A DNA stretch of 64,000 bases, taken from Candidatus Freyarchaeum deiterrae. Its GTDB lineage: Archaea; Asgardarchaeota; Jordiarchaeia; Jordiarchaeales; Jordiarchaeaceae. The first letter of the stretch is position 1. Each line of letters starts with the position of its first letter. Both the position numbers and the translations under genes were made by a program. Positions 6,842 to 20,086 of this stretch are shown one piece after another. Under the pieces are notes generated by a model, which worked only from the letters and a program-made list of their open reading frames with translations, was not told where the DNA came from and made no database searches. Where the stretch lies: positions 3,136,001 through 3,200,000 of the forward strand of contig CP147778.1 of the NCBI GenBank assembly GCA_037305845.1. Direction: 5' to 3'.

Positions 6842-7290
6842 TTTTGATACCTCTTTTTTAAATTTTTATTACCCGAACCCAAGATGTGGGAACTGGTTTC
6901 TAGATTCCTCCATTATTGCTTGAATATTACTCCAAGTAATAAATTGCTTTTTCTTTATTACAATTATTTCTTGTAAAGGAAAGAAATGAGAATTTAAATT
7001 TTTTGCAAAGTTTTTTATTACCTTTTGACAAGCTGGGATTTGTCAGTCGCGTTAATAAGGAATTGGTTGGTTTCCCCCAAGAAGCAGACTTCCCATATGA
7101 GCGCCTCACACAGTTTAAGCAGAGTAAGCAAGGAACTCCAAATTTTTTGAGGTTAAGAGCAAAATCAGCTAGTTCGCATCAATGTATCTATAGTGGGTAC
7201 TGTTATTTTCGTTTGCGAAAAAAGGCTTTAATGCCCAAAAAATAAATATTTCATATTTCATACGCTTCATATTTCTCTGGAGGTTTATGT

Positions 7291-8067
7291 TTGAAAACCT
7301 ATATTATTGCAGTGGGCGACGAGCTGTTAAACGGCAAAACCCTAGATTACAATAGCCACTGGATAGCAAAGAGGCTCACCGGCCTCGGATTTGAGGTCTC
7401 GGGCATAAGTGTGGTGCCCGACAGTTTAGAGGAGATAGGTGAGGTTGTTAAAAGGTATTTGGAGAAAGGTGCTGAGCTTATTGTTATTACTGGGGGTTTG
7501 GGTCCCACTCCCGGAGATATAACTTTAGAGGCGATCTCAAAGGCTCTCGGGAGAAGGATGAGTGTTGAGCCTAGAGCTCTGGAGATTGTTAGAGATAAAT
7601 ACAGTCAGTTCTTTGAAGTAGGGCATGTTTCTAGCCCTACTATAACGGAGGATAGGAAGAAGATGGCGGTTCTACCGGAGAATAGTATTCCTATTTTTAA
7701 TGTAGTGGGCGTAGCCCCAGGAGTCTTCTTAAAACAAGACTCGGCGAGTATTCTGGTTTTGCCAGGGGTTCCATCGGAGATGATGTATCTTCTCGAAATG
7801 GCGATTCCCTTCTTATCCGAGAAAACAACAGGAGTTTTTAGGACAGCGGAAATGGTAGTGGATGTTGGTGATGAATCTACACTCGCCCCACTTCTCAGAA
7901 AAGTTATGGAAAAGTTTCCAACAGTTTCAATAAAGTCATATCCTTCGGGTTTTGGGGACCGAGTTAGAATGAGGATTATCGCCTCCACAAAAGCCGACGA
8001 TGCTAAGGAAGGAGATAAAATTCTGAGCAAAGCCCTAGAGCTAATGAAAAATCTCATTAAAAAATAG
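7291..8067 (+). CDS. CinA-like protein (molybdopterin-binding N-domain plus KH-like domain)
   Basis: VGDELLNG..LDYNS, ITGGLGPT..DIT, LPGVPSEM motifs. Confidence 0.88.
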   Translation: MKTYIIAVGDELLNGKTLDYNSHWIAKRLTGLGFEVSGISVVPDSLEEIGEVVKRYLEKGAELIVITGGLGPTPGDITLEAISKALGRRMSVEPRALEIVRDKYSQFFEVGHVSSPTITEDRKKMAVLPENSIPIFNVVGVAPGVFLKQDSASILVLPGVPSEMMYLLEMAIPFLSEKTTGVFRTAEMVVDVGDESTLAPLLRKVMEKFPTVSIKSYPSGFGDRVRMRIIASTKADDAKEGDKILSKALELMKNLIKK

Positions 8068-8487
8068 GATTGCTCAAACAAAAAGTTGGGTAAAATAACC
8101 TCCCAATTTTTTCCAACATTCAAGCTTTACAATACATTCCAAACAGTTATGCATCACAGTCTTTGTGAAATAGGGCATGTAACTGTTGAAGGAAAAAGTG
8201 TATAAACATATATTTTCCTGTAATGCAAAGTTCTCGACGCAAGTAGAAGCAGCAAAAGAGCAAGAGGGAGAAGAAACCCCCTACATACATATGTACCTTT
8301 AAACGACTATTTTTTCCAGATTAAACTTAAATTTCGTACTACGACTTTTTAAAATAAAACCCTCTCAAGAAGAACTTGCGAAGGAAACTGTTTCCATCCA
8401 TCGTAGCAAGCTTACCCCCCCTCTCAGCAGGCTCTACGACACACATATACACCCCAAACAAGACCAAAAAGTGGTGGAAAAAAGGAA

Positions 8488-8577
8488 ATGAACAGTAACC
8501 ATAAATGGGGCTCCAGCGGCGAGAAACGCACCATCACCTGGGAGTATGAACCATCGCCAGAACTCCTGCAGTACCTA
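8488..8577 (+). pseudogene. Probable detached 5' end of the tnpB gene found at 18811-19995
   Basis: Reads MNSNHKWGSSGEKRTITWEYEPSPELLQYL, which joins in frame to KDMQEALRYAL on the minus strand from 19995 and resembles the strand-Pro-helix N-terminus of TnpB; locally GC-richer than the flank. Confidence 0.65.
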
Positions 8578-8667
8578 ATACAAAAAAGTCTTTCCAATTA
8601 ATTTATTAATGACAATAACCAACTTATAGAAAAGTATTGAAAAAATACTTTTTTGGAGGGTTTTTCC

Positions 8668-9840
8668 TTGTTAGGCGATTTGAATATTGATAGAGTTAAT
8701 CAGCTAATAAGTAAAGTTAGTGATGTTTCAACCAGACTTCTTTCTGAAAGAGCAATTGTGGAATCAAAGCTGTTCAACGTGACTGCTTACAATGGTTTAG
8801 CTTGTTTCCAGCTTTACAACGGATACCAGTACAAGATAATGAAAGAACTAGCCAAGCACATCGACCCAGCCGAAATAGGGAGAAAATGCAAAACACTGGC
8901 AATGATACCAAACGCTCTGGGCATGTGGGCTTTTATAGGGCTGTACATGCTAGGGAGAATGCAAACACTCCACGATCTGGGAGGCCCTCAAAATGAACCA
9001 GAGGAGAGGAGAGAAGAGGGAAAATTCATACTCGATTTTTGGCAGAGAATGGCTAGCGCATACTATGACGGATTCCTATTCGCTGATGATAACGGTTTCA
9101 GGATCCCAGTATTGCCGGGTTCCATACTGAACATGGTTAAGGAAAATCTCGTGGAGCTAGATAAAGATAAGATTCCCAAATTGAAGAGAACCATGGCTCA
9201 GGTGCAATTGACGGAGTTCCTATACTACTGTGAGTGTAGGGCTTCCATACACGAGATGGGGCCTTACAAGATAAGTGATGACGAGATACTTCTGTTCAGA
9301 GAGTTCTCACCCCTATGGGATGGAACCAATCTTAAATTTGAATGGGGCAACTTGGAAGCAAAGTCTCCGCTACCGAATATCTCCATAGCTTTAACTCTCA
9401 AGGGAATAGACTCAGTTGATTTCACAGACTATGGAACGATGTTCGTCAAACCCGAAGATTACACCAACAACATCCGAAAAGTTGCAATGTTCACCCGAAG
9501 AGGCGACAAGATAGAACCCGTGGGATTGGATATACTTGAACCCTTAAACCAGTTTGCAACGGATGCCCAAACGGAGCTCTACCTCAAATTCGCGGAGTGG
9601 CCCGAGGACATGAAGGTTCTCTCGGGAGCAGAGGTTTTCGCGAAATACCTTTTCACTTTCACAGACATCGCAGGCATAACAAACAAATTCAAACTAGGCA
9701 TAAATGATGAAACCAAGAAAAAATGGTTCCCAAAAATAATGACTGAGTGGAAAATAATGCATCCTTCCTGGGCACGAATCTTCAGACCCAAAGAAGAATG
9801 GAAAGTAGATCCAACATTCTACTGGATGGTAGAGAAATGA
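8668..9840 (+). CDS. Uncharacterised ~390-aa protein, paralogue A of 12320..13477
   Basis: Shares ESKLFxVTAY, FILDFWxR, CExRA and GPYKIS motifs with the 12320 ORF; TTG at 8668 follows GGAGG (track start 8653). Confidence 0.85.
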   Translation: MLGDLNIDRVNQLISKVSDVSTRLLSERAIVESKLFNVTAYNGLACFQLYNGYQYKIMKELAKHIDPAEIGRKCKTLAMIPNALGMWAFIGLYMLGRMQTLHDLGGPQNEPEERREEGKFILDFWQRMASAYYDGFLFADDNGFRIPVLPGSILNMVKENLVELDKDKIPKLKRTMAQVQLTEFLYYCECRASIHEMGPYKISDDEILLFREFSPLWDGTNLKFEWGNLEAKSPLPNISIALTLKGIDSVDFTDYGTMFVKPEDYTNNIRKVAMFTRRGDKIEPVGLDILEPLNQFATDAQTELYLKFAEWPEDMKVLSGAEVFAKYLFTFTDIAGITNKFKLGINDETKKKWFPKIMTEWKIMHPSWARIFRPKEEWKVDPTFYWMVEK

Positions 9841-10739
9841 ACGCGGAGAGAACGGTAAAAGACTCAGAGGAGCACCCACACGACTACCCCTCAAGATTGG
9901 ACTGGAAGGAATCATGGTACTTTACCTACATGGATCCGAGAAGCAAGATCTGTGGAATATTCTACATATCCACGTACCCAAATAACGGAAGGACAGATTA
10001 CCTCACGACCTATCTGATAGACGGAAAAGTTGACGGATACATGAACACTACCGGAGTGAGCGGGAAACTGAGTGATATAACTGACGGAAAATTAAAATTT
10101 GAATTAGTGAAGCCCAATAAGAAATGGAATGTTTTCTTGGAAACCGAGAAGTTCAATATGGACTTCAAATTCAATGGAAGGTTTCCTCCATTTCGCTTTG
10201 ACCCCAATAAAGCCTACGTCAAGGATGTTCTTGAACAGGAGCATTACGAGCAGAGTTGCAAGGTTAATGGAACAATAAGATTCTCCGATGGAACCTCTCT
10301 TGAGGTTGATTGCTATGGTCACCGGGACCACTCTTGGGGCTTAAGAGACTACTCCAAAATAACAAAATGGGACTGGATGCAAGCCCAATTCGACGACTAC
10401 GCTATGAACATAATACGATTAACGATAGGCAAGAAAACCGAAATCAGCGGCTTCGTCTCAAACAAGAAAGGAAACATCGAAATAGTAGACACGAAAATCG
10501 AAACCCAGTACATGGAAGACCAGAAAACACCTCGGACGTCAACATACCTAGCGATAGATGAGAATGGGCGGTCGAAAACAATTCAATCCAAGAAGATTTA
10601 TGGGATAGTTTATCCGCCATGTCAGTCTAAGGAAGGAATCCGCACAGACATTTACGAAAACTTTTCCGAGTTTGCAGTCAAAGGAGAAAAAGGGAAGGGT
10701 TACGGGATTTCAGAATATCTGTTAACGGTAAAAGTCTAA
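9837..10739 (+). CDS. CrtC/AttH/tocopherol-cyclase-like double beta-barrel protein
   Basis: WKESWYF, HYEQ and GHRDHSWG.R....WDW motifs; ATGA overlap with the upstream stop supports a start at 9837 (track start 9747). Confidence 0.7.
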   Translation: MNAERTVKDSEEHPHDYPSRLDWKESWYFTYMDPRSKICGIFYISTYPNNGRTDYLTTYLIDGKVDGYMNTTGVSGKLSDITDGKLKFELVKPNKKWNVFLETEKFNMDFKFNGRFPPFRFDPNKAYVKDVLEQEHYEQSCKVNGTIRFSDGTSLEVDCYGHRDHSWGLRDYSKITKWDWMQAQFDDYAMNIIRLTIGKKTEISGFVSNKKGNIEIVDTKIETQYMEDQKTPRTSTYLAIDENGRSKTIQSKKIYGIVYPPCQSKEGIRTDIYENFSEFAVKGEKGKGYGISEYLLTVKV

Positions 10740-10993
10740 ACTGAAGCGGATAAGGCTAAGCAGACAGCTTAAGGCCTCCACGAGTGGGAGCTACTACAAC
10801 TTGGACTTTGTTACCCGAAACGCCTAGAGGAAAAAATCGTAGTGTAGATAGGGATGTAAATTTTGTCAATCCCGAAAGGCACAATTCAATAAATCTGCTA
10901 TTGCAAGGATTAAGATAAATAATTTTTTAAACAAAATAGACATAAGCTTTAAATATAAGAAGCTCTCTATAAAATAGATAATAATCTCCCTTT

Positions 10994-11620
10994 GTGGAGG
11001 AAATGGAGGGAGAATCTCTGAAATCTTCTACTATTCTTATATTGGTCGGGTGGATTCTCGTAATAATCAGTCTCATTATTGTTTACATTAACTGGATGGG
11101 ACTACCAGCGGCAAATACTAATGTTACTATAGGAGGATACGGTTTTTGGATGACTACTTCTTTTGATTGGGTACCCTTTCTTATCATAGGTCTTGGTCCA
11201 CTTTCTTCTGCTAGCACAATGATATTGATATCTGTAATTATCTTAGTTGTTGCACTAATAATGCAATTAGTCGGCGTAATATGGGCTAGGCGAGAGGGAA
11301 CTGGAACTTCAGTCGCTCTTGTTTTGGTCGGCTGGTTTGTCGTTTTACTCAGTTTCATTTTGCTTCTCATTGGCTGGATAGAACTATTCATGGCGGTTAA
11401 TAATTTAAATCAGTTTTTTGTCTATAACACCACTGGTTGGATCTTGGCGGTCTTAGGTAATTTATCTGGTTTAGGCCTAGTGTTTACGGCTTTGATGGAC
11501 TTTTTCGCGGGTATTGGTGCAATTTCCACCGTTAGCACAATGATAATGATATCGACTATTATCTTAGTTGTTGCAGCAGTAATAGAATTAGCCGGCGTAA
11601 TATTGGCATTGCGAAAGTAA
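10994..11620 (+). CDS. Polytopic membrane protein made of two internal repeats
   Basis: Highly hydrophobic; LVGW... and STMIxISxIILVVA..I..LxGVI each occur twice, and the repeat is visible at DNA level. Confidence 0.8.
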   Translation: MEEMEGESLKSSTILILVGWILVIISLIIVYINWMGLPAANTNVTIGGYGFWMTTSFDWVPFLIIGLGPLSSASTMILISVIILVVALIMQLVGVIWARREGTGTSVALVLVGWFVVLLSFILLLIGWIELFMAVNNLNQFFVYNTTGWILAVLGNLSGLGLVFTALMDFFAGIGAISTVSTMIMISTIILVVAAVIELAGVILALRK

Positions 11621-11826
11621 ATCAAAGGGCGGATTAATAGTAATTTGGAGCCCTAGTAAACCATCCAAAAATTTCCCCTCTTTTTTATTTTTAAACACTC
11701 TAGTTTTATTTTTAGGGTTAGTTATTTATTTTAAAAGTTCAGGAATTCTGGCATCTTGGCAAGTTTCAGTGTTCCAATTAATTTATAAGCAAATTATATA
11801 ATTTAAGTAAATAACATCAACGAGGA

Positions 11827-12192
11827 ATGAATATGTCGTATCGGAAAGTTGCTGACGGGCTCATAAGTTGTGAAAAAAATGTAGAGGGAGTACTCCGAGT
11901 AATAAATAGTGTTCAAGATGTAATAGCTCTTCTTAAATCGGGAGCGGAAGGGAAAATACCTATAGTACAGGACGCGGGAACCACAACCCTTGCGCCGGTG
12001 CTTTCACGTGTCCGCGGGGTTGTTTGCTTATCGGGTGGCGTGGGTTCCCATTTGGCGATAGTTACAAGAGAGTTCGGCATACCCGGGTTGATGGGTACAG
12101 TAATCCAGTACGACGGAGATCTGAACGGGAAAAAAGGGAAAATTGTAGCGTGCGGAGACGCTAAAGGTGAGCTGCACATTCTAGAAGATTAG
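11827..12192 (+). CDS. Stand-alone PEP-utilising enzyme mobile (phospho-His swivel) domain
   Basis: GGVGSHLAIVTREFGIP signature. Confidence 0.9.
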   Translation: MNMSYRKVADGLISCEKNVEGVLRVINSVQDVIALLKSGAEGKIPIVQDAGTTTLAPVLSRVRGVVCLSGGVGSHLAIVTREFGIPGLMGTVIQYDGDLNGKKGKIVACGDAKGELHILED

Positions 12193-12319
12193 CATTAAAA
12201 AGGGGAAATGCCCCTAACTGATTTTTTTAATTTATCCTTTTTTTAAGTAAAGACCAAACTTTTATATAACATATTTATGCACCGTTCTAATAATTTTAAT
12301 GAAATTCTAGGGGTGTCTA

Positions 12320-13477
12320 TTGATGAATATTAAAGAAGCTAATGAGCTTATTCCCCACCTTTCCGAGGTTATTGATTACCAGGTCACCCATAGGGGGCTT
12401 TTGGAATCGAAGCTATTCCCCGTCACCGCGTATATCTGTGTATCTTTTTATAACAGCTACGACATGCTATACGACGTATTGAAAATGGTATCAGAGAAGA
12501 CTACACCCGAAAAAATGGGTGAGGAAAGCAGAAAGATACTCTCGGAACTGCATGCGATGACGCTTTTTTACATACCATTGTATTATATGGTAGGCAGAAT
12601 GGGAGAGATTTTTGCCAACAAGGGAGACCCGAAAAGCGAGCTCAAAAAAAAGAGAAGGCAGACCGTGTTTATCCTCGACTTTTGGAAGAGGCTAGCATCC
12701 TCTTACTTCCCTGGCGGCAGGTTGACAGTGTATGACTCCAACGGAGAGAACCTAGCTCTAAATCAACCTGATGTAGATTGGGTTAAGGAACAAATCGTAG
12801 ACGTGACCCCGGAGGAAGCGACTAAAATCAAAAGGGTGGCGGCTAATTTGGACTTGTTTTCATTTCTCGATGAGTGCGAAGCCAGAGCAAAGCTCGGAGA
12901 ACACGGACCCTACAAAATAAGCAAAAACGAAACACTGATTTTCAGGGAAATATTGCACCTCTACGATGGTAGAAAACCGCACTTCCCCTGGTCGGCGACA
13001 GAAGCCAAAGCACCATACACGAACATCGCCTTCGCCTACAGGTTAAAAAATGTGGAAGCAAAATTCGACGACTTCTCAACCATGACCACAACGCCGGGCG
13101 ACTTCACAGAAAAAATAACCGGAATCGCCCTACTAAGAAGAGACCGAAAAAAAATAAAACCAGTAGACATGGACGAGTTGGAAGCATTCAACGACTACGC
13201 CGTGAAAGCCCAAGAAGAATTGTATTTGAGGTTCTCTGAATGGGATAAAAGGCAACGCCTAATCGCTGGAGCATTCGCATACTGCTACGGTTACGCCCGA
13301 TACACAAATTTTGTAGGAATCACGGATCAAATAAACTGGGATCTCACGGAAAGAACAATGAAAAAATACGTACCCTTCTTTACGGAGAACGATTTAGACC
13401 CCGGAATCCCCAGACTATTTAGAACCGAGGAAGAGAGAAAGAAAGACCCCTCGCTTTATCTAATATCCGAAGACTGA
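12320..13477 (+). CDS. Uncharacterised ~385-aa protein, paralogue B of 8668..9840
   Basis: Same conserved blocks as the 8668 ORF; lies directly after the swivel-domain gene. Confidence 0.85.
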   Translation: MMNIKEANELIPHLSEVIDYQVTHRGLLESKLFPVTAYICVSFYNSYDMLYDVLKMVSEKTTPEKMGEESRKILSELHAMTLFYIPLYYMVGRMGEIFANKGDPKSELKKKRRQTVFILDFWKRLASSYFPGGRLTVYDSNGENLALNQPDVDWVKEQIVDVTPEEATKIKRVAANLDLFSFLDECEARAKLGEHGPYKISKNETLIFREILHLYDGRKPHFPWSATEAKAPYTNIAFAYRLKNVEAKFDDFSTMTTTPGDFTEKITGIALLRRDRKKIKPVDMDELEAFNDYAVKAQEELYLRFSEWDKRQRLIAGAFAYCYGYARYTNFVGITDQINWDLTERTMKKYVPFFTENDLDPGIPRLFRTEEERKKDPSLYLISED

Positions 13478-13574
13478 ACAAAACCAAGCCAAACAAGTAA
13501 CAATAATAAAAACAGATTAAAAGAATAGAATCAACTAGCAAGAATATTTTTGGTAGGGGCTGCTTTCTACTCTT

Positions 13575-15188
13575 TTATTTTCTTTGTTCAATTTTTGATT
13601 CGACTTTTTTAGCTTTTACTTTTCCTTTTCCTATGTCTGCCCATTTCCACGTTATTGTGTGGTCATCCTTAGTGCATTCCAGTAGTCCCTCGTTAATAAG
13701 TTGGGTTAAGCCCCATTCCACCCACTCTCTTGAGAGGGCATCCGATACTGCCTTAATGGAATATATTTCGTCCGCGAGGAGTTTCTTTGGATCTTCTCCG
13801 TTGTTTTCAAGTTTCCCATGTCTCTCAATGCGGTCGTTTTTCAGGAGTCTCCAAGCTAGGGTGCGTCTTTTCCTGAGGAGGTAATCTTCCTTCGCCTCCG
13901 GTGTGTTCAGTGTTCCTTCCTCAACCTCTTTTTGTTGGTCTCTTATGAGTCCTTCTAGGTTGTAGTTGAAATCATTTACCGTCTTGTTCAGAAGTTCTTT
14001 GGGAACCTCATCGCTTTCTGTCACAGCTTGGTTTGCGTCGTATCTGAGCCAATTGCTGTGAAGTATTCTTAATCCGAACTCTTTGGCTCTCTCCCTCACT
14101 TCTGTTCCTGGGAATGGTGAAAGAATGTGGAAGCCGTGGGCGGTGTCCAACTCATTGCCGAATTCCATTGATTCCTTCATGGTTTGGGGTGTTTCGCCAG
14201 GCAGTCCCATTATAAATGAGGCGAGAACCTTTACTCCTGAATCTTTCGCTATCTTAACTCCTTTCCTCAACTTTTCCCTAGTTTGCCTCTTCCTCGCTAG
14301 CTCGAGTATTCTATCATCCCCGCTCTCCGCGCCGTAGCAGAAATAGTAGCACCCAGCCTCACTCATTCTTTTCACGAGATCCGGGGTAACGGTATCGCAT
14401 CTAGAGAATGCACACCATTTAATCTTTAACCCTCTATTCAGTATCTCATCACAAATCGCGTAGACGTGTTTGTGATTCATAGTTAACTGGTCATCTTCTA
14501 CACATATGTCATCGAATCCCTGACCCATAATTACTTCCATCTCATCAACAACGAGTTTCGGGTCTCGGTAACGGGCTTTTGCGCCAACCATTTTGTGCCC
14601 AACGCAGAATATACAGTGGTAAGGGCATCCACGAGCGGTAATCATGCTGGCTCCCACCTTGTAGGCGTGATATTTCGCCAGCGGTAAAAGGTGACGCGCC
14701 GGAAATGGAAGTTCGTCTAAATTCTGTATAAGCGGCCTATCCGGATTAACAACTATTTTCCCATCTTCCCTGTAGGTAATCCCCAGAATATCTTTAAGGT
14801 CTTTACCCTCAACCAAGTCTAACAAAGTGTATTCTCCTTCCCTCCTTACGATAACGTCAATGTAAGGGGCCTCGTTCAAACACTCCTCATCCCAAAAAGT
14901 GACGTGGCACCCGCCCATAACGGTCATGGCACCCATTTCGTTGCAGACCTTCAACGCCCGCAATGCGGTGGGATAATTCATGGTTACGGGTCCAGCTCCA
15001 CAGACGTCTGGTTTAAATTCCTGAATCTTCTCCTTAATCCTTTGCGGGGAAAATTTTGAAACAACCATATCCAAAATTTCAACTTCGTGACCCTTCTCTT
15101 CAAGAACAGCAGCAAGATAACATAATCCAAGGGGTAGGGTTGGGCATTCCGCGAAAGGATAGGGCGCATTTATCAACAGAGTTCTCAT
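13575..15188 (-). CDS. B12-binding radical SAM enzyme (paralogue 1)
   Basis: N-terminal PLGLCYLAA...GGCHVT cobalamin-binding domain; RGCPYHCIFC. Confidence 0.92.
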   Translation of the reverse strand: MRTLLINAPYPFAECPTLPLGLCYLAAVLEEKGHEVEILDMVVSKFSPQRIKEKIQEFKPDVCGAGPVTMNYPTALRALKVCNEMGAMTVMGGCHVTFWDEECLNEAPYIDVIVRREGEYTLLDLVEGKDLKDILGITYREDGKIVVNPDRPLIQNLDELPFPARHLLPLAKYHAYKVGASMITARGCPYHCIFCVGHKMVGAKARYRDPKLVVDEMEVIMGQGFDDICVEDDQLTMNHKHVYAICDEILNRGLKIKWCAFSRCDTVTPDLVKRMSEAGCYYFCYGAESGDDRILELARKRQTREKLRKGVKIAKDSGVKVLASFIMGLPGETPQTMKESMEFGNELDTAHGFHILSPFPGTEVRERAKEFGLRILHSNWLRYDANQAVTESDEVPKELLNKTVNDFNYNLEGLIRDQQKEVEEGTLNTPEAKEDYLLRKRRTLAWRLLKNDRIERHGKLENNGEDPKKLLADEIYSIKAVSDALSREWVEWGLTQLINEGLLECTKDDHTITWKWADIGKGKVKAKKVESKIEQRK

Positions 15189-15330
15189 TAACGATTTACC
15201 TCGTTCTTTTTGTGATTCAAATTGTTTATCGCAAACACATAGTTAAATATACTTAAAGTTTACGTTTTTATAAAATTTAGCTCGCAAAAGGTTAGACTCG
15301 TGGAGCAAAGAGTGAAATAGTTGTTAGCTA

Positions 15331-16929
15331 CTACGCGTTTCGTAAGATTTCTGCTTGGCGATTTTTTCTGCTTGCATTGTTCCAGAACCATGTTATCGAG
15401 CTGTCATCTTTAGTGTAATTGAAAATGCCTTCTTCGAGCATTTTCCTTAATTCTTCAGCAATTCGATCTTTTGTCATGAAGGTTGAAATAGGTTTAAGTT
15501 TGTGTATCTCTTCTGCGAGAAGTTCAACAGGATCCCCATTTTCTGTAAACTTGCCGTGCCTCTCTATGTAATCTCTCTTCAAAAGATGCCAGGTGAATAC
15601 TCTTCTCTCCCTGAGCTCTATTAAGTCTCTATCTTCTTTGCTGAGTTTTCCCTGCTTTTTTCGTTCTTCTTCACTTTTCGTTATTGTTTCTATTAATGTG
15701 CCATAAAACTCCTTGGCGACCTTGTTTATGTACTCGGCGCTTGCGCCCTCTGTTTCCGTAATGGCTTGATTGGCATCATACCGATACCAGTCGCTGTGAA
15801 GAATCTTTATCCCAAGCTCCTCCGCTTTCTCCCTGATCTCTGTGCCGGGGTAGGGGGTAAGTATGTGGAAACCGTACCAATTTCCCAGGGACTTTCCAAA
15901 CTCAAGAGACTCCTTAACCGTTTCTTCTGTCTCTCCTGGAAGTCCTAGTATCATTGAGGAGAGTGTTGTTAGTCCCACCTCGTTTGAGAGAGTTATACCC
16001 TTCCTTATTTTCTCAATCGTTAGTCTCTTCTTTGCCAAGTCCAGTATACCCTGGTTTCCGCTCTCAACGCCGTATAGAATGAATATGCAGCCGGCTTCTT
16101 TCATTTTGCTCAAAAGTTCCTTTGTAACAGTGTCTACTCTTGCAAAAGCTGTCCACTGAACCTTAATTCCTCTATTGATTATCTCGTCGCAGAATTCGAA
16201 AATCCTCTTGATTTTAAATGTGAGAAGATCATCCACAACGTTAACTAGGTCGAAGCCGTAATCGAAGACTATTTCTTCAAGCTCGTCAACACACAGTTTT
16301 ATGTCTCTGAACCTCGGCTTCCTGCCAACCATTCTGCCTCCGACACAAAAGGTGCAGTTGTAGGGGCATCCTCGCCCGGTCATCATGGCACAGCCAGTTT
16401 TGTAGGCTCTGTACTTGGACAGGGGGAGTAGGTGCTTCGCTGGGAAGGGAAGTTCGTCCAAGTTCTCTATAAACGCTCTAGGAGGGTTCTTTACGATTTG
16501 TCCGTCTTCCCTGTAAGTTATACCGTCGACATCTTTTAGGTCTCTACCTTTAACAATATCCAGTAAAGTGTATTCGCCTTCCCCTCGGGCTACGATATCC
16601 AGATAGGGTGCTTCCTGCAGAGCTTCCTTATCGTAGAAGCTGACGTGGCATCCTCCCATAATTGTGGTGGCTCCGAACTTCTTGCAGACTTCCATGGCAC
16701 GAAGGGCGGTCGGATAATTTATGGTAATGGGGCCTGTGCCAGCGATATCGGGTTTAAACTCTTTCATCTTATCCGCAATTTTTTTAATAGAAAATCTTGA
16801 AACCAGAAGGTCGAGAATCTGAACTTCAAAGCCCTCTCTCTCAAGTACACCTGCTATGTAACAGAGCCCTAGGGGAGGTGTAGGTCCCTCATTGAAGGGG
16901 TATGGAACATTTACAAAGAGTACTTTCAT
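15331..16929 (-). CDS. B12-binding radical SAM enzyme (paralogue 2)
   Basis: PPLGLCYIA; RGCPYNCTFC; ATG at 16929 aligns with the paralogue starts (track start 16989). Confidence 0.92.
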   Translation of the reverse strand: MKVLFVNVPYPFNEGPTPPLGLCYIAGVLEREGFEVQILDLLVSRFSIKKIADKMKEFKPDIAGTGPITINYPTALRAMEVCKKFGATTIMGGCHVSFYDKEALQEAPYLDIVARGEGEYTLLDIVKGRDLKDVDGITYREDGQIVKNPPRAFIENLDELPFPAKHLLPLSKYRAYKTGCAMMTGRGCPYNCTFCVGGRMVGRKPRFRDIKLCVDELEEIVFDYGFDLVNVVDDLLTFKIKRIFEFCDEIINRGIKVQWTAFARVDTVTKELLSKMKEAGCIFILYGVESGNQGILDLAKKRLTIEKIRKGITLSNEVGLTTLSSMILGLPGETEETVKESLEFGKSLGNWYGFHILTPYPGTEIREKAEELGIKILHSDWYRYDANQAITETEGASAEYINKVAKEFYGTLIETITKSEEERKKQGKLSKEDRDLIELRERRVFTWHLLKRDYIERHGKFTENGDPVELLAEEIHKLKPISTFMTKDRIAEELRKMLEEGIFNYTKDDSSITWFWNNASRKNRQAEILRNA

Positions 16930-17062
16930 GCACACACTCACCAGATGCCTTGGGAACAATACATAGGAACTCAAGTTGCTTAATAGCATATTACGGCGCT
17001 TTTTAGAAATAAAATGCTTTTCCTATTTAAGCATTATTCTAATTTTATTTTATAGAGGTTAG

Positions 17063-18682
17063 CTATTGTGGGTTTCGTAGGGTTTCCATTTGATTCTTCT
17101 CTCGCTTACCTATGTCAGTCCAGAACCAAATCACCGAGTTCTCATCCCGGGTGTAGCTGAGAAAACCTTCCTCAACCATTTTCTTTATTTCCTCAGCGAC
17201 CCGATCCTTCTTTACAATGGATGAAATAGCCTTGAGGGTGTAAAGCTTTTCTGCGAGAAGCTCTTCTGGGTTCCCTTTTTCTGTGAATCTGCCATATCTT
17301 TCTATGTAATCGTGTTTCAGTATCTGCCAGACGAACCTTCTCGTTCTTTTAAGTTTTATTTCCTCGAAGTCCTTCTTTGTAAACACATCCTCTTTGAGTT
17401 CTTCTCCTCTGTCCATAGCTGCTTCTATCTTGTCCGTAGCATCTTCAAGTGATTTATAAAATGCCTTTGACGCCTCGCTTATGTACCTGGCGCTCGCTCC
17501 CTCCGTTTCTGAAACAGCATGGTTCGCATCGTACTTTAGCCAGTCGTTGTCGAGAATTTTTAACCCGAGCTCCTCCGCTCTTTCCCTGACCTCGGTACCC
17601 GGGTAAGGCGAAAGGATGTGGAAGCCGTACATGTTTCCAAGAGACTTTCCAAGCTCAAAAGACTCCCTAATCGTTTCCTCCGTCTCTCCTGGAAGGCCTA
17701 GTATAAATGATGAGACGGTTGGTATTCCCACCTCATTTGAGAGGGCTACGCCTTTCCTTATTTTGTCCAAGTTTGTTCTTTTTCTTGCCAATTCTAGTAT
17801 TTTTTGGTTTGCGCTTTCAACACCATATAAAATGAAAAAGCATCCAGTTTCTTTCATTCTGGTTAAAAGTTCCTTTGTCGTGGTGTCTACTCTGGAGAAG
17901 GCACTCCACTCGATGTGAAGCCCTCTGTTATCAAGTTCGTCGCAGAACTCGAAAACTCTTTTGTGATTAATTGTTAAAAGGTCGTCCACAATGTTGACTC
18001 TGTGGAAGCCGTATCTGTAAACTATTTCTTCAATCTCGTCAACACATCGTTTTATGTCCCTGAACCTGGGCTTTTTGCCAACCATTTTGCCTCCGACACA
18101 AAAGGTGCAGTTGAAGGGGCATCCTCGTCCAGTCATCATGTCACAGCCGGATTTGAAGGCTTGGTACTTCGACAGGGGGATAAGATGCCAAGCGGGCCAG
18201 GGAATTTCATCCAGATTCTCGATGAGTTTTCTTGGAGGATTCTTTATGATTTCCCCATTCTCCCTGTAGGTTATACCTTCAACATCTTTCAGGTCTCTGC
18301 CTCTTAAAATGTCTGAGAAAGTGTTTTCGCCTTCACCTCGGACCACGATATCCAAGTAGGGTGCTTCCAGCAAGGCTTCCCTGTCGGCAAAGGTGACATG
18401 GGGGCCTCCCATAACCGTGGTAGCCCCGAATTTTTTGCAAACTTCAATACAACGGAGGGCTGTGGGGTAACTTATGGTAACGGGACCTGCGCCTACGATG
18501 TCTGGTTTGAATTCTTTCATCTTGTCAGAAACCTTCTTGAGGGAAAATCTTGAAATGAGAAGGTCGAGAATCTGAACTTCAGCTCCTTCCTTTTCAGCTA
18601 CAGCTGCAATGTAGCAGATTCCTAATGGAACAGTGGGACACTCGGTATACGGGTAAGGAACATTCAGTAGGAGTACTTTCAC
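17063..18682 (-). CDS. B12-binding radical SAM enzyme (paralogue 3)
   Basis: VPLGICYIA; RGCPFNCTFC; GTG at 18682 follows GGTGA (track start 18706). Confidence 0.92.
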   Translation of the reverse strand: MKVLLLNVPYPYTECPTVPLGICYIAAVAEKEGAEVQILDLLISRFSLKKVSDKMKEFKPDIVGAGPVTISYPTALRCIEVCKKFGATTVMGGPHVTFADREALLEAPYLDIVVRGEGENTFSDILRGRDLKDVEGITYRENGEIIKNPPRKLIENLDEIPWPAWHLIPLSKYQAFKSGCDMMTGRGCPFNCTFCVGGKMVGKKPRFRDIKRCVDEIEEIVYRYGFHRVNIVDDLLTINHKRVFEFCDELDNRGLHIEWSAFSRVDTTTKELLTRMKETGCFFILYGVESANQKILELARKRTNLDKIRKGVALSNEVGIPTVSSFILGLPGETEETIRESFELGKSLGNMYGFHILSPYPGTEVRERAEELGLKILDNDWLKYDANHAVSETEGASARYISEASKAFYKSLEDATDKIEAAMDRGEELKEDVFTKKDFEEIKLKRTRRFVWQILKHDYIERYGRFTEKGNPEELLAEKLYTLKAISSIVKKDRVAEEIKKMVEEGFLSYTRDENSVIWFWTDIGKREKNQMETLRNPQ

Positions 18683-18779
18683 ACAATCACCATCAAAACA
18701 GTTCAAACAAGACTGAGATAAGAAACAGCTCCACGCTAATATAACTATAACGTGTAATCTGAAGAAAGATAAACTTTCC

Positions 18780-19995
18780 TATCGAACCGTTTCTAGAAAT
18801 GTGTATATTTTTATACAGCGTTTCCATTCGGAGCGTTGGCCGGCTCAGTCCAACCCGCTCTGGCGACATCAGGCTTGTCACCAGCGTACAGGTATTCCTT
18901 CTTCAGCGTCGGCCAAGAGGCGTCCGCACTCACGGTAAACGGGAAGCCGCACAGACGCAGACCCCCACGGAGAATCGCCAGACTGGCGAGCCTGTCCCGG
19001 TGGTAGTCCACGCCACAGGTTTCGCATCTGCTTATCCCCCACGCTGGGTGCTCAAGGTTTCCACCGCAGACGGGACATCGGGAGGAAGTCCCCCGTGGGT
19101 TCACGTAAAGAGTCCGGTGAGAAGACTTGTAATCCACCAGCCGCTGATACAAGCGGTAGGGCCAGCGATTAAGCTGGGTTCGAAACTTCTTGCTCTTGTT
19201 AGCCTCTCTTCGCCCGTTGTTCCTGATGCCTGTGAGGTTTTCGAAAATGAAGATGGTGTCCTGGTTTTCGCGCACTGTTTTTGTGGTCAGCTTGTGAAGC
19301 GCGTCTACCACGCGGTGTCGCTGCCGATTTCTGGTTTCCTTGAGTTTTCGCGCTCGTTTCTGGGGATTCGGGATGTGGCTTTGCAGTCGGCGTCTTCTCC
19401 GCGAAAAATCGTTTTGGATCCGGGTGATTCTGCGCAGCGGCTCTGTGGATGCTGCTTCAAGATGAACGGTGCCTTGGGAGTCTTTTACGGCAGCTGTGGA
19501 GTCTATGGTGGAGAAGTTGAGGTCGGAAGCCGCAAACCGGGTGCTGAGGGGCTTGTTTCCGGAGCCGATTATAAAGGTGAGGCAGACTTTCCGCTCGGTG
19601 AGCAGTACCTCGGAGACTCGTCCGTGATCATAGTCTTTGTATTTTTTGTGGTTGGTGTTTATGGGTATCCAGACGTAGCTGAAGGGCTGCAGGGTGATGC
19701 GGAGCTGACCTTCGACCAGTTTGAAGAGTTCCGCGTCGATGCGTGCGGCTAACTTTTTCACTGCGGGGATGCGGAGCTGTCCTTCGTGGTGGTTTTTGCG
19801 GTACGATTTGAGCAGAGCTACCGCCGATTTGCAGACCGGGTTTATGTGGTGGCGGGCGTACGGGTAACGTGAATAGAACCAGTCTTTGATCATGCGCCGC
19901 AGTTCTATGGGGTGGGGTATTTTGTGTTGTTTGTTTCGGGTTGCTATTAGGTATGCGGCCTGTAACGCGTAGCGCAACGCTTCCTGCATATCCTT
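18780..19995 (-). mobile_element. IS605/IS1341-like element fragment (tnpB plus right-end region); no tnpA seen
   Basis: Visibly GC-richer than the host DNA; abrupt boundary at ~19995; the right end position is approximate. Confidence 0.7.
18811..19989 (-). CDS. tnpB: IS200/IS605-family RNA-guided nuclease TnpB, N-terminally truncated
   Basis: RuvC-I ASDLN, RuvC-II IFENL, YVNPRGTSSRCPVCG..CETCG zinc ribbon, RuvC-III HRDRLAS. Confidence 0.9.
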   Translation of the reverse strand: MQEALRYALQAAYLIATRNKQHKIPHPIELRRMIKDWFYSRYPYARHHINPVCKSAVALLKSYRKNHHEGQLRIPAVKKLAARIDAELFKLVEGQLRITLQPFSYVWIPINTNHKKYKDYDHGRVSEVLLTERKVCLTFIIGSGNKPLSTRFAASDLNFSTIDSTAAVKDSQGTVHLEAASTEPLRRITRIQNDFSRRRRRLQSHIPNPQKRARKLKETRNRQRHRVVDALHKLTTKTVRENQDTIFIFENLTGIRNNGRREANKSKKFRTQLNRWPYRLYQRLVDYKSSHRTLYVNPRGTSSRCPVCGGNLEHPAWGISRCETCGVDYHRDRLASLAILRGGLRLCGFPFTVSADASWPTLKKEYLYAGDKPDVARAGWTEPANAPNGNAV

Positions 19996-20086
19996 TTACC
20001 TTTCAAGTCAATGAATGGTTTTATTATAGAATTGACTCGAATAATCTGGATAAGACTTAAGTACTGCGTTTAAAGGTTGTAGAAAT

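Follow-up and report, generated by a model that had tools for sequence, protein, structure and literature searches.

A probable single inversion through a tnpB insertion sequence in the genome of Candidatus Freyarchaeum deiterrae

Inversions mediated by insertion sequences (IS) through homologous recombination between inverted IS copies are common in bacteria and archaea, in the latter for example in Sulfolobus and haloarchaea. Transposition of the IS200/IS605 family is a single-stranded cut-and-paste process and is not known to invert DNA. Here we describe a locus of Candidatus Freyarchaeum deiterrae, an Asgard archaeon, in which the tnpB gene of an IS element lies in two oppositely oriented pieces on the two sides of a gene cluster. 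The window, that is, the whole stretch of DNA analysed (64,000 bp), covers positions 3,136,001 to 3,200,000 of contig CP147778.1, and coordinates given without a contig are those of the window. As judged from sequence comparison, one reciprocal inversion, over the 11,418 bp of 8578-19995, very probably split tnpB between its codons 30 and 31. A first-pass annotation of the window had proposed the same event, in which the cluster was flipped and tnpB cut. An intact copy of the element, a deleted copy, the synteny with related genomes and a restored intergenic spacer all agree with it.

On the + strand, 30 codons beginning with ATG at 8488 encode MNSNHKWGSSGEKRTITWEYEPSPELLQYL, which ends in ...PELLQYL, the last codon being CTA (8575-8577). 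After 8577 follow seven unrelated codons in AT-rich DNA and then TAA at 8599-8601. On the - strand, reading from 19995 gives KDMQEALRYAL..., with an in-frame TAA immediately upstream (19998-19996); this frame is uninterrupted over 394 codons and ends with the stop codon 18813-18811. An ORF finder sees of this second piece only an open reading frame (ORF) of 392 amino acids (aa) at 18811-19989, with ATG at 19989. Codons 1-30 of tnpB are window 8488-8577 (+) and codons 31-424 are 19995-18811 (-). Both pieces had been reported in the annotation and read the same when taken again from the window sequence. The two pieces are richer in GC than the spacers next to them (0.30-0.40): the values are 0.52-0.65 across 18800-19999 and 0.47 across 8400-8599.

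If 8578-19995 is turned back, does the fusion give a normal TnpB N-terminus, as had been claimed? The closest full-length homologue in a large protein search, P0003 (423 aa), reads ...PELLQYLKDMQEALRYAL... at the joint and continues ...LQYLKDMQEALRYAL. The fused TnpB of 424 aa shares 376 identities with it (88.7%), with a single one-residue gap well away from the joint, at column 100, and the head encoded by 8488-8577 is identical to P0003 residues 1-30 at 28 of 30 positions. The Atabeyarchaeia genome G021 has seven TnpB copies, 57-62% identical to the window TnpB, and the six that were translated read GEKRTIxxxYxPSxxxLxYL(K/E)DMxxAL across the joint with neither gap nor overlap. The claimed fusion is thus borne out by P0003 and six further homologues, all of which run across the joint gapless. 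The structure model of P0003 (32 homologues) is of moderate confidence as a whole (mean pLDDT 67), with values of 70-94 for residues 12-100. In this model residues 13-19 form a strand and residues 24-50 a long helix, and the break after residue 30 falls in this helix 1.

The remnant itself is recognised by Pfam PF07282 (35.5 bits, cut-off 26.3), while PF01385 reaches 25.9 bits on the truncated protein and stays under its cut-off of 30.5. It keeps the three RuvC acidic residues named in the annotation, D in SDLN, E in FENL and D in HRDR, together with a CxxC..CxxC zinc finger. Homologues carry PF27234 and PF07282, and some also PF01385. Relatives annotated as TnpB or as transposase of IS200/IS605 occur in Nitrososphaerota, Njordarchaeia and Atabeyarchaeia. 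The structure-level matches, ISDra2 TnpB, Cas-phi and Cas12f, are all distant.

The DNA of the element gives the same answer. An intact IS copy of 1610 bp is present at L047:9687-11296, on the JGI metagenome contig Ga0315314_1000054, which encodes P0003. This copy matches window 8166-8576 (84%) and then, from the next base but one, 19995 back to 18787; the second match has 90.7% identity over the 1209 bp of window 18787-19995 (L047:10091-11296). Compared with this intact copy, no base is missing or added at the joint. The ancestral element, of about 1.62 kb, therefore consists of window 8166-8577 followed by the reverse complement of 18787-19995 and has a non-coding left end of 322 bp.

Intact copies elsewhere in the same genome had been suggested as a check. 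The genome under study (G000) holds only a deleted copy of about 520 bp (G000:C1:151710-152229; L004:1501-2019, with TGAA at L004:2020-2023), and the intact one was found in the metagenome contig. In the deleted copy the left end (window 8165-8349, 89%) runs straight into 19127-18787 (94%), the two parts being in normal relative orientation; some 185 bp remain from the left end and some 340 bp from the right, and most of tnpB is gone. The copy interrupts an enoyl-CoA hydratase/crotonase-like gene. If it is excised and TGAA is kept, the crotonase frame reopens as ...IEVGLLFTGMTIMPRILG..., which by chance would happen in one case in three. The other TnpB hits in G000 (2252337-2253236 and 2501329-2502228) are distant, 24-26% identical, so the window copy was the only full-length copy of the element found in this genome. 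A DNA search of 40 relatives with the left end and the tnpB head gave no match outside G000. Among the congeners, G002 has a remnant (G002:C59:2873-3019, L018) of the last 49 TnpB residues, with 82% identity and an internal TAG, so one congener at least still shows traces of the element family.

All three copies (window, L004 and L047) begin TGAA-A..GGGCATGTAACTGTTGAAGG and end ...CACATTTCYAGAAACGG. Their flanks are unrelated, and they have no target duplication and no terminal inverted repeats. The TGAA at 8166-8169 may be a target or TAM motif rather than IS DNA; beyond this common TGAA no motif is conserved among the three upstream flanks. The 322-bp left end contains no ORF of 60 aa or more, and the element has no tnpA. 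A six-frame search of the whole G000 genome for the Y1 transposase (PF01797) found none, with positive controls in 6 of 14 genomes. Such an absence is what one expects of the tnpB-only subgroup, and it is compatible with membership in the family. By its protein, its ends and its style of insertion the element fits the tnpB-only (IS1341-group type) branch of IS200/IS605. Folding of the last 254 nt at the 3' end gives z = -2.05, with a terminal hairpin just before the right boundary, and we presume the omega-RNA region to be there. An Rfam scan of the element gave no family above threshold; one C/D-box match (sR32) antisense to tnpB, 23.8 bits against a cut-off of 40, was taken as chance. Subterminal DNA hairpins at both IS ends could not be distinguished from those of shuffled sequences.

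The features of the locus are listed below, with their evidence in brackets.

7291-8067, + strand: MoCF_biosynth gene (molybdopterin-binding/CinA-like), left collinear flank (PF00994, E 1.8e-33)
8166-8487, + strand: IS left end, non-coding (homology starts at 8166 against L047 and at 8165 against L004)
8488-8577, + strand: tnpB codons 1-30, with start codon, first beta strand and first two turns of helix 1 (P0003 alignment and model)
8577/8578 (genome 3,144,577/3,144,578), no strand: joint J1 (similarity to the intact IS ends; within 15 bp that to the congener spacer begins)
8578-8652, + strand: 75-bp half of the reconstructed ancestral divergent spacer, kept with gene 8653 (alignment to five congener spacers)
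8653-13477, + strand: inverted cargo part 1, five genes (Pfam and orthologues), as follows
8653-9840, + strand: protein without assigned function
9747-10739, + strand: DUF7065/DUF7064 protein (Pfam)
10994-11620, + strand: ORF specific to G000
11827-12192, + strand: PEP-utiliser swivel domain protein (Pfam)
12320-13477, + strand: paralogue of gene 8653-9840
13575-15188, 15331-16989 and 17063-18706, - strand: inverted cargo part 2, three B12-binding radical SAM genes (PF02310 and PF04055)
18707-18786, - strand: flank of the IS right end (TnpB guide position), upstream of a radical SAM gene (copies diverge right after ...AGAAACGG)
18787-19995, - strand: tnpB codons 31-424 and stop (18811-19995) and 24-bp right end (18787-18810) (L047 match, PF07282)
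19995/19996 (genome 3,155,995/3,155,996), no strand: joint J2 (IS match ends at 19995; congener match starts at 20039-20052)
19996-20086, + strand: 91-bp half of the reconstructed ancestral spacer, kept with gene 20087 (alignment to five congeners)
20087-21685, + strand: fourth B12-binding radical SAM gene, right collinear flank (orthologues of 85-87% aa identity in five congeners)

The comparison of this arrangement with five congeners (G001-G005, at about 77-82% nucleotide identity), which the annotation had also proposed, supports the inversion. Orthologues of genes 8653 (81-85% aa identity) and 20087 are adjacent and divergent in 5/5 congeners. The spacer between them is 160 bp in G001, 166 bp in G004 and 171 bp in G002, and is longer in G005 and G003 through insertions. 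Re-inverting 8578-19995 rebuilds a spacer of 75 + 91 = 166 bp, which aligns with those of the congeners across the joint. The contig G002:C389 has the order MoCF (+), ilvD-like (+), four radical SAM genes (+), orthologues of 12320, 11827, 9747 and 8653 (-) and the orthologue of 20087 (+). Against it the window is flipped over 8592-19995, with the flanks 7268-8083 and 20042-22464 collinear. The MoCF orthologue lies at 51-824 of this contig in the same orientation (80% aa identity), the orthologues of cargo part 2 are co-oriented with it, and the region upstream of the radical SAM orthologue partly aligns with 18707-18786. In G002 the orthologues of cargo part 1 are on the strand opposite to that of the flanks, and in G001 and G003-G005 their order is the same. 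By this comparison the inverted state is the derived one in G000, because of the layout of the five congeners, and the broken IS independently requires the same.

These data also bear on the reading in which no inversion took place and two opposite IS copies flanked the cluster, each of them truncated independently. The family was mobile in the lineage, as the second, deleted copy inside another gene indicates, and this speaks for such a reading. It needs both truncation points to coincide to the base, and it leaves unexplained both the restored normal length of the spacer and the inversion of the block with collinear flanks against five congeners. The base-exact complementarity of the pieces and the outgroup synteny effectively refute it, and we give it next to no probability.

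Several differences in gene content were seen at the same locus. The radical SAM row of G002 has four genes and that of G000 three, and the third of the four (L040:6431-7975) has at most 68% aa identity to the window genes. An ilvD-like dehydratase (L040:1116-2759, G002:C389) lies between MoCF and the first radical SAM gene; by spacing the same holds for G005. G000 has the IS at this position (window 8068-8165 and 18707-18786), and its sole ilvD-like homologue, 56% identical, sits elsewhere (G000:3289177-3290775). Either G000 lost the ilvD-like gene or the other genomes acquired it.

The spacer between 8653 and 20087 is also variable. In G003 (L042:3340-3860, G003:C91) it contains two nested MITE-like repeats, a unit of about 190 bp inside one of about 320 bp, which have 71 matches in G003, 27 in G004, 14 in G005 and 1 weak match in G000. 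In G005 a separate insert of about 150 bp is found at the same position of the spacer. Since insertions also landed there in these two genomes, the spacer may be prone to breaks, which is only suggestive.

The comparison shows the following steps. An IS of about 1.62 kb with tnpB only had inserted in an ancestor between the MoCF gene and the row of B12-binding radical SAM genes. In the later inversion, one break fell within tnpB and the other in the spacer of about 166 bp between the divergent genes 8653 and 20087. Eight cargo genes and 94% of tnpB were turned, and the IS left end with the first 30 codons stayed behind.

If the block was inverted in one event, then we can ask: How were its ends joined? 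The sequence at each joint is unique, the two have only 2 nt (AA) in common in register, and no inverted repeats involving 8577/8578 and 19995/19996 were found. Of the A-run microhomology that the annotation had noted, the tiny size stands; read directly, it amounts in register to these two nucleotides only. A microhomology of 3 nt (TAA) was considered and rejected as out of register. Inversion driven by homology was rejected, there being no inverted repeats at the joints. Because the joints share only AA, we infer that the joining was illegitimate, by two breaks that were mis-rejoined or by a template switch in replication, and not homologous, site-specific or driven by a transposase. Given a single inversion, this seems to us likely, with less assurance than for the inversion itself.

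Could the element itself have made the inversion? Cleavage by TnpB with its omega-RNA, a Y1 transposase acting on pseudo-ends, or an invertase would give an element-encoded or site-specific event, possibly a reversible one. One break indeed lies inside the IS, and the ancestral tnpB site forms a small hairpin (-9.2 kcal/mol) with the break in its loop; the spacer that received the other break took mobile-element insertions in G003 and G005. However, 5-7% of shuffled sequences fold as well at the tnpB site and the spacer site (site B) shows no structure, and a break triggered by a hairpin was rejected as not significant. Self-targeting by TnpB was likewise rejected: the 16-nt flanks past the right ends of both G000 copies, equivalent to guides, are unmatched near either break, and the matches are at chance level. 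PF01797 is absent from the six-frame search, as said above, the joints lack inverted repeats, and the block has no recombinase gene, no recombinase domain having been found in the Pfam scan of ten ORFs. Since, in addition, transposition of IS200/IS605 is not generally known to produce inversions, we regard an element-encoded or site-specific event as very unlikely. An IS-linked event with wider consequences, in which the break was made at the tnpB hairpin or by an RNA-guided nuclease, or in which both orientations exist in the soil population, appears to us very unlikely.

A further alternative is an assembly artefact, the 11.4-kb block having been mis-oriented when scaffolds from short reads were curated by hand. 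The genome, of 3,576,204 bp in one contig, comes from wetland soil, and Illumina assemblies were curated by hand to close it (PMC11291895). According to the same paper, assemblies made independently from Nanopore and PacBio data validated the overall topology of the genome, and even read coverage has been reported across it (PMC11529989).

Blocks are mis-oriented by assemblers or curators where inverted repeats bound them. No such repeats bound this block, its joints being unique sequence, so the usual cause of mis-orientation is missing. An exact scan of public metagenome contigs for J1 gave no match, in a collection that may omit records near this genome, and this lack of an independent contig agrees with an artefact. 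The same scan for the ancestral tnpB joint (with A or C at the variable base) found the L047 contig only, which served as positive control. On balance we hold an artefact to be highly improbable.

The lack of a match to J1 also belongs to the points that weigh against the single inversion. The joints are known here from the assembly, and the published validation concerns the "overall topology" and not this locus. Among the congener contigs, that of G002 alone spans both flanks. Its left flank differs from that of G000 by the extra ilvD-like gene and the fourth radical SAM gene, so other rearrangements also happened at the locus. Finally, the illegitimate mechanism is deduced only from the absence of homology.

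The single inversion would have several consequences. With the start codon, the first strand, part of helix 1 and the upstream DNA of the left end lost, we infer that the tnpB remnant is dead, its catalytic residues being intact, and that the inversion killed the only full-length copy of the element in G000. The 394 codons are still open, which suggests that the inversion is not ancient. The half-spacer 8578-8652 has a conserved AT-rich box, CCAATTAATTTAT (8597-8609), and GGAGGG ahead of the TTG start; the half-spacer 19996-20086 has a conserved box, CTTAAGTA, 24-31 nt ahead of the ATG at 20087. If the two boxes are read as promoters, after the geometry of archaeal promoters, the inversion probably left both cargo promoters whole, since the breaks fell upstream of the boxes. 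The five-gene operon from 8653 is now directly downstream of the IS left end and co-oriented with it. Read-through from the left end into this operon is possible, in which case a tnpB promoter in the left end (none has been identified) could drive the operon.

Two further observations concern G000 only. The ORF 10994-11620 (+) encodes 208 aa without a Pfam match and lies in a low-GC stretch (about 0.30-0.40) of about 1.1 kb, 10740-11826. Between the orthologues of 9747 and 11827 no orthologue of this ORF was detected in the five congeners, and the gap in G002 is about 140 bp. The stretch looks like an insertion into the cluster specific to G000. The 16S rRNA gene (G000:C1:1804896-1806517, L046:1501-3122), which is archaeal, has 1622 bp against a model of 1478 positions, with about 140 extra bases that form an insertion or an intron.

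The locus represents a base-exact inversion, polarised by outgroups and probably illegitimate, in a complete Asgard archaeal genome. The rearrangement is real but ordinary, and has no bearing on the open questions of TnpB or Asgard biology. A published survey of mobile elements reported no discernible integrated elements in Freyarchaeia and mentioned neither TnpB nor an inversion (PMC11529989), whereas we find that this Freyarchaeia genome carries the remains of a TnpB IS, one broken full-length copy and one deleted copy. For annotation, the 392-aa "transposase" ORF 18811-19989 is a pseudogene truncated at its 5' end, and 8488-8577 is its missing head. Gene order and strand in the radical-SAM/phospho-histidine cluster are derived in G000, and the congeners show the original layout, which matters when this cluster is read as an operon.

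Among known systems, the element resembles most the tnpB-only members of IS200/IS605. It shares with them the RuvC D-E-D triad, the CxxC..CxxC zinc finger and a match to the Cas12f1-like TNB domain, as well as asymmetric ends without terminal inverted repeats or target duplication, all copies abutting TGAA on the left, and a structured 3' end up to a sharp right boundary. It differs in the lack of tnpA and in its long left end (322 bp), and its omega-RNA and TAM are only putative. To RNA-guided nucleases such as ISDra2 TnpB (PDB 8EXA/8H1J) the window TnpB is only distantly related (E 1.7e-4 to ISDra2 TnpB, in the C-terminal half). The deleted copy at G000:151710-152229 is similar to MITE/PATE deletion derivatives of IS200/IS605 in keeping both ends without most of tnpB, but it is single and not an amplified family.

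The inversion can be compared with invertible switches (Hin/Gin, FimB/E, shufflons), in which a block also stands opposite to its ancestral orientation and genes are moved relative to their upstream DNA. Here, however, there are no inverted-repeat sites, no recombinase gene and no evidence of two orientations, and one joint destroys a gene; the inversion is not an invertible switch. With IS-mediated inversions it has in common a multi-gene block that is inverted with IS sequence at both borders. In contrast to these, the locus has a single IS copy with the break inside it, and the partner is an unrelated spacer with 2 nt of homology. Since the copy is single and homology is lacking, the IS would be the victim of the rearrangement rather than its substrate or agent.

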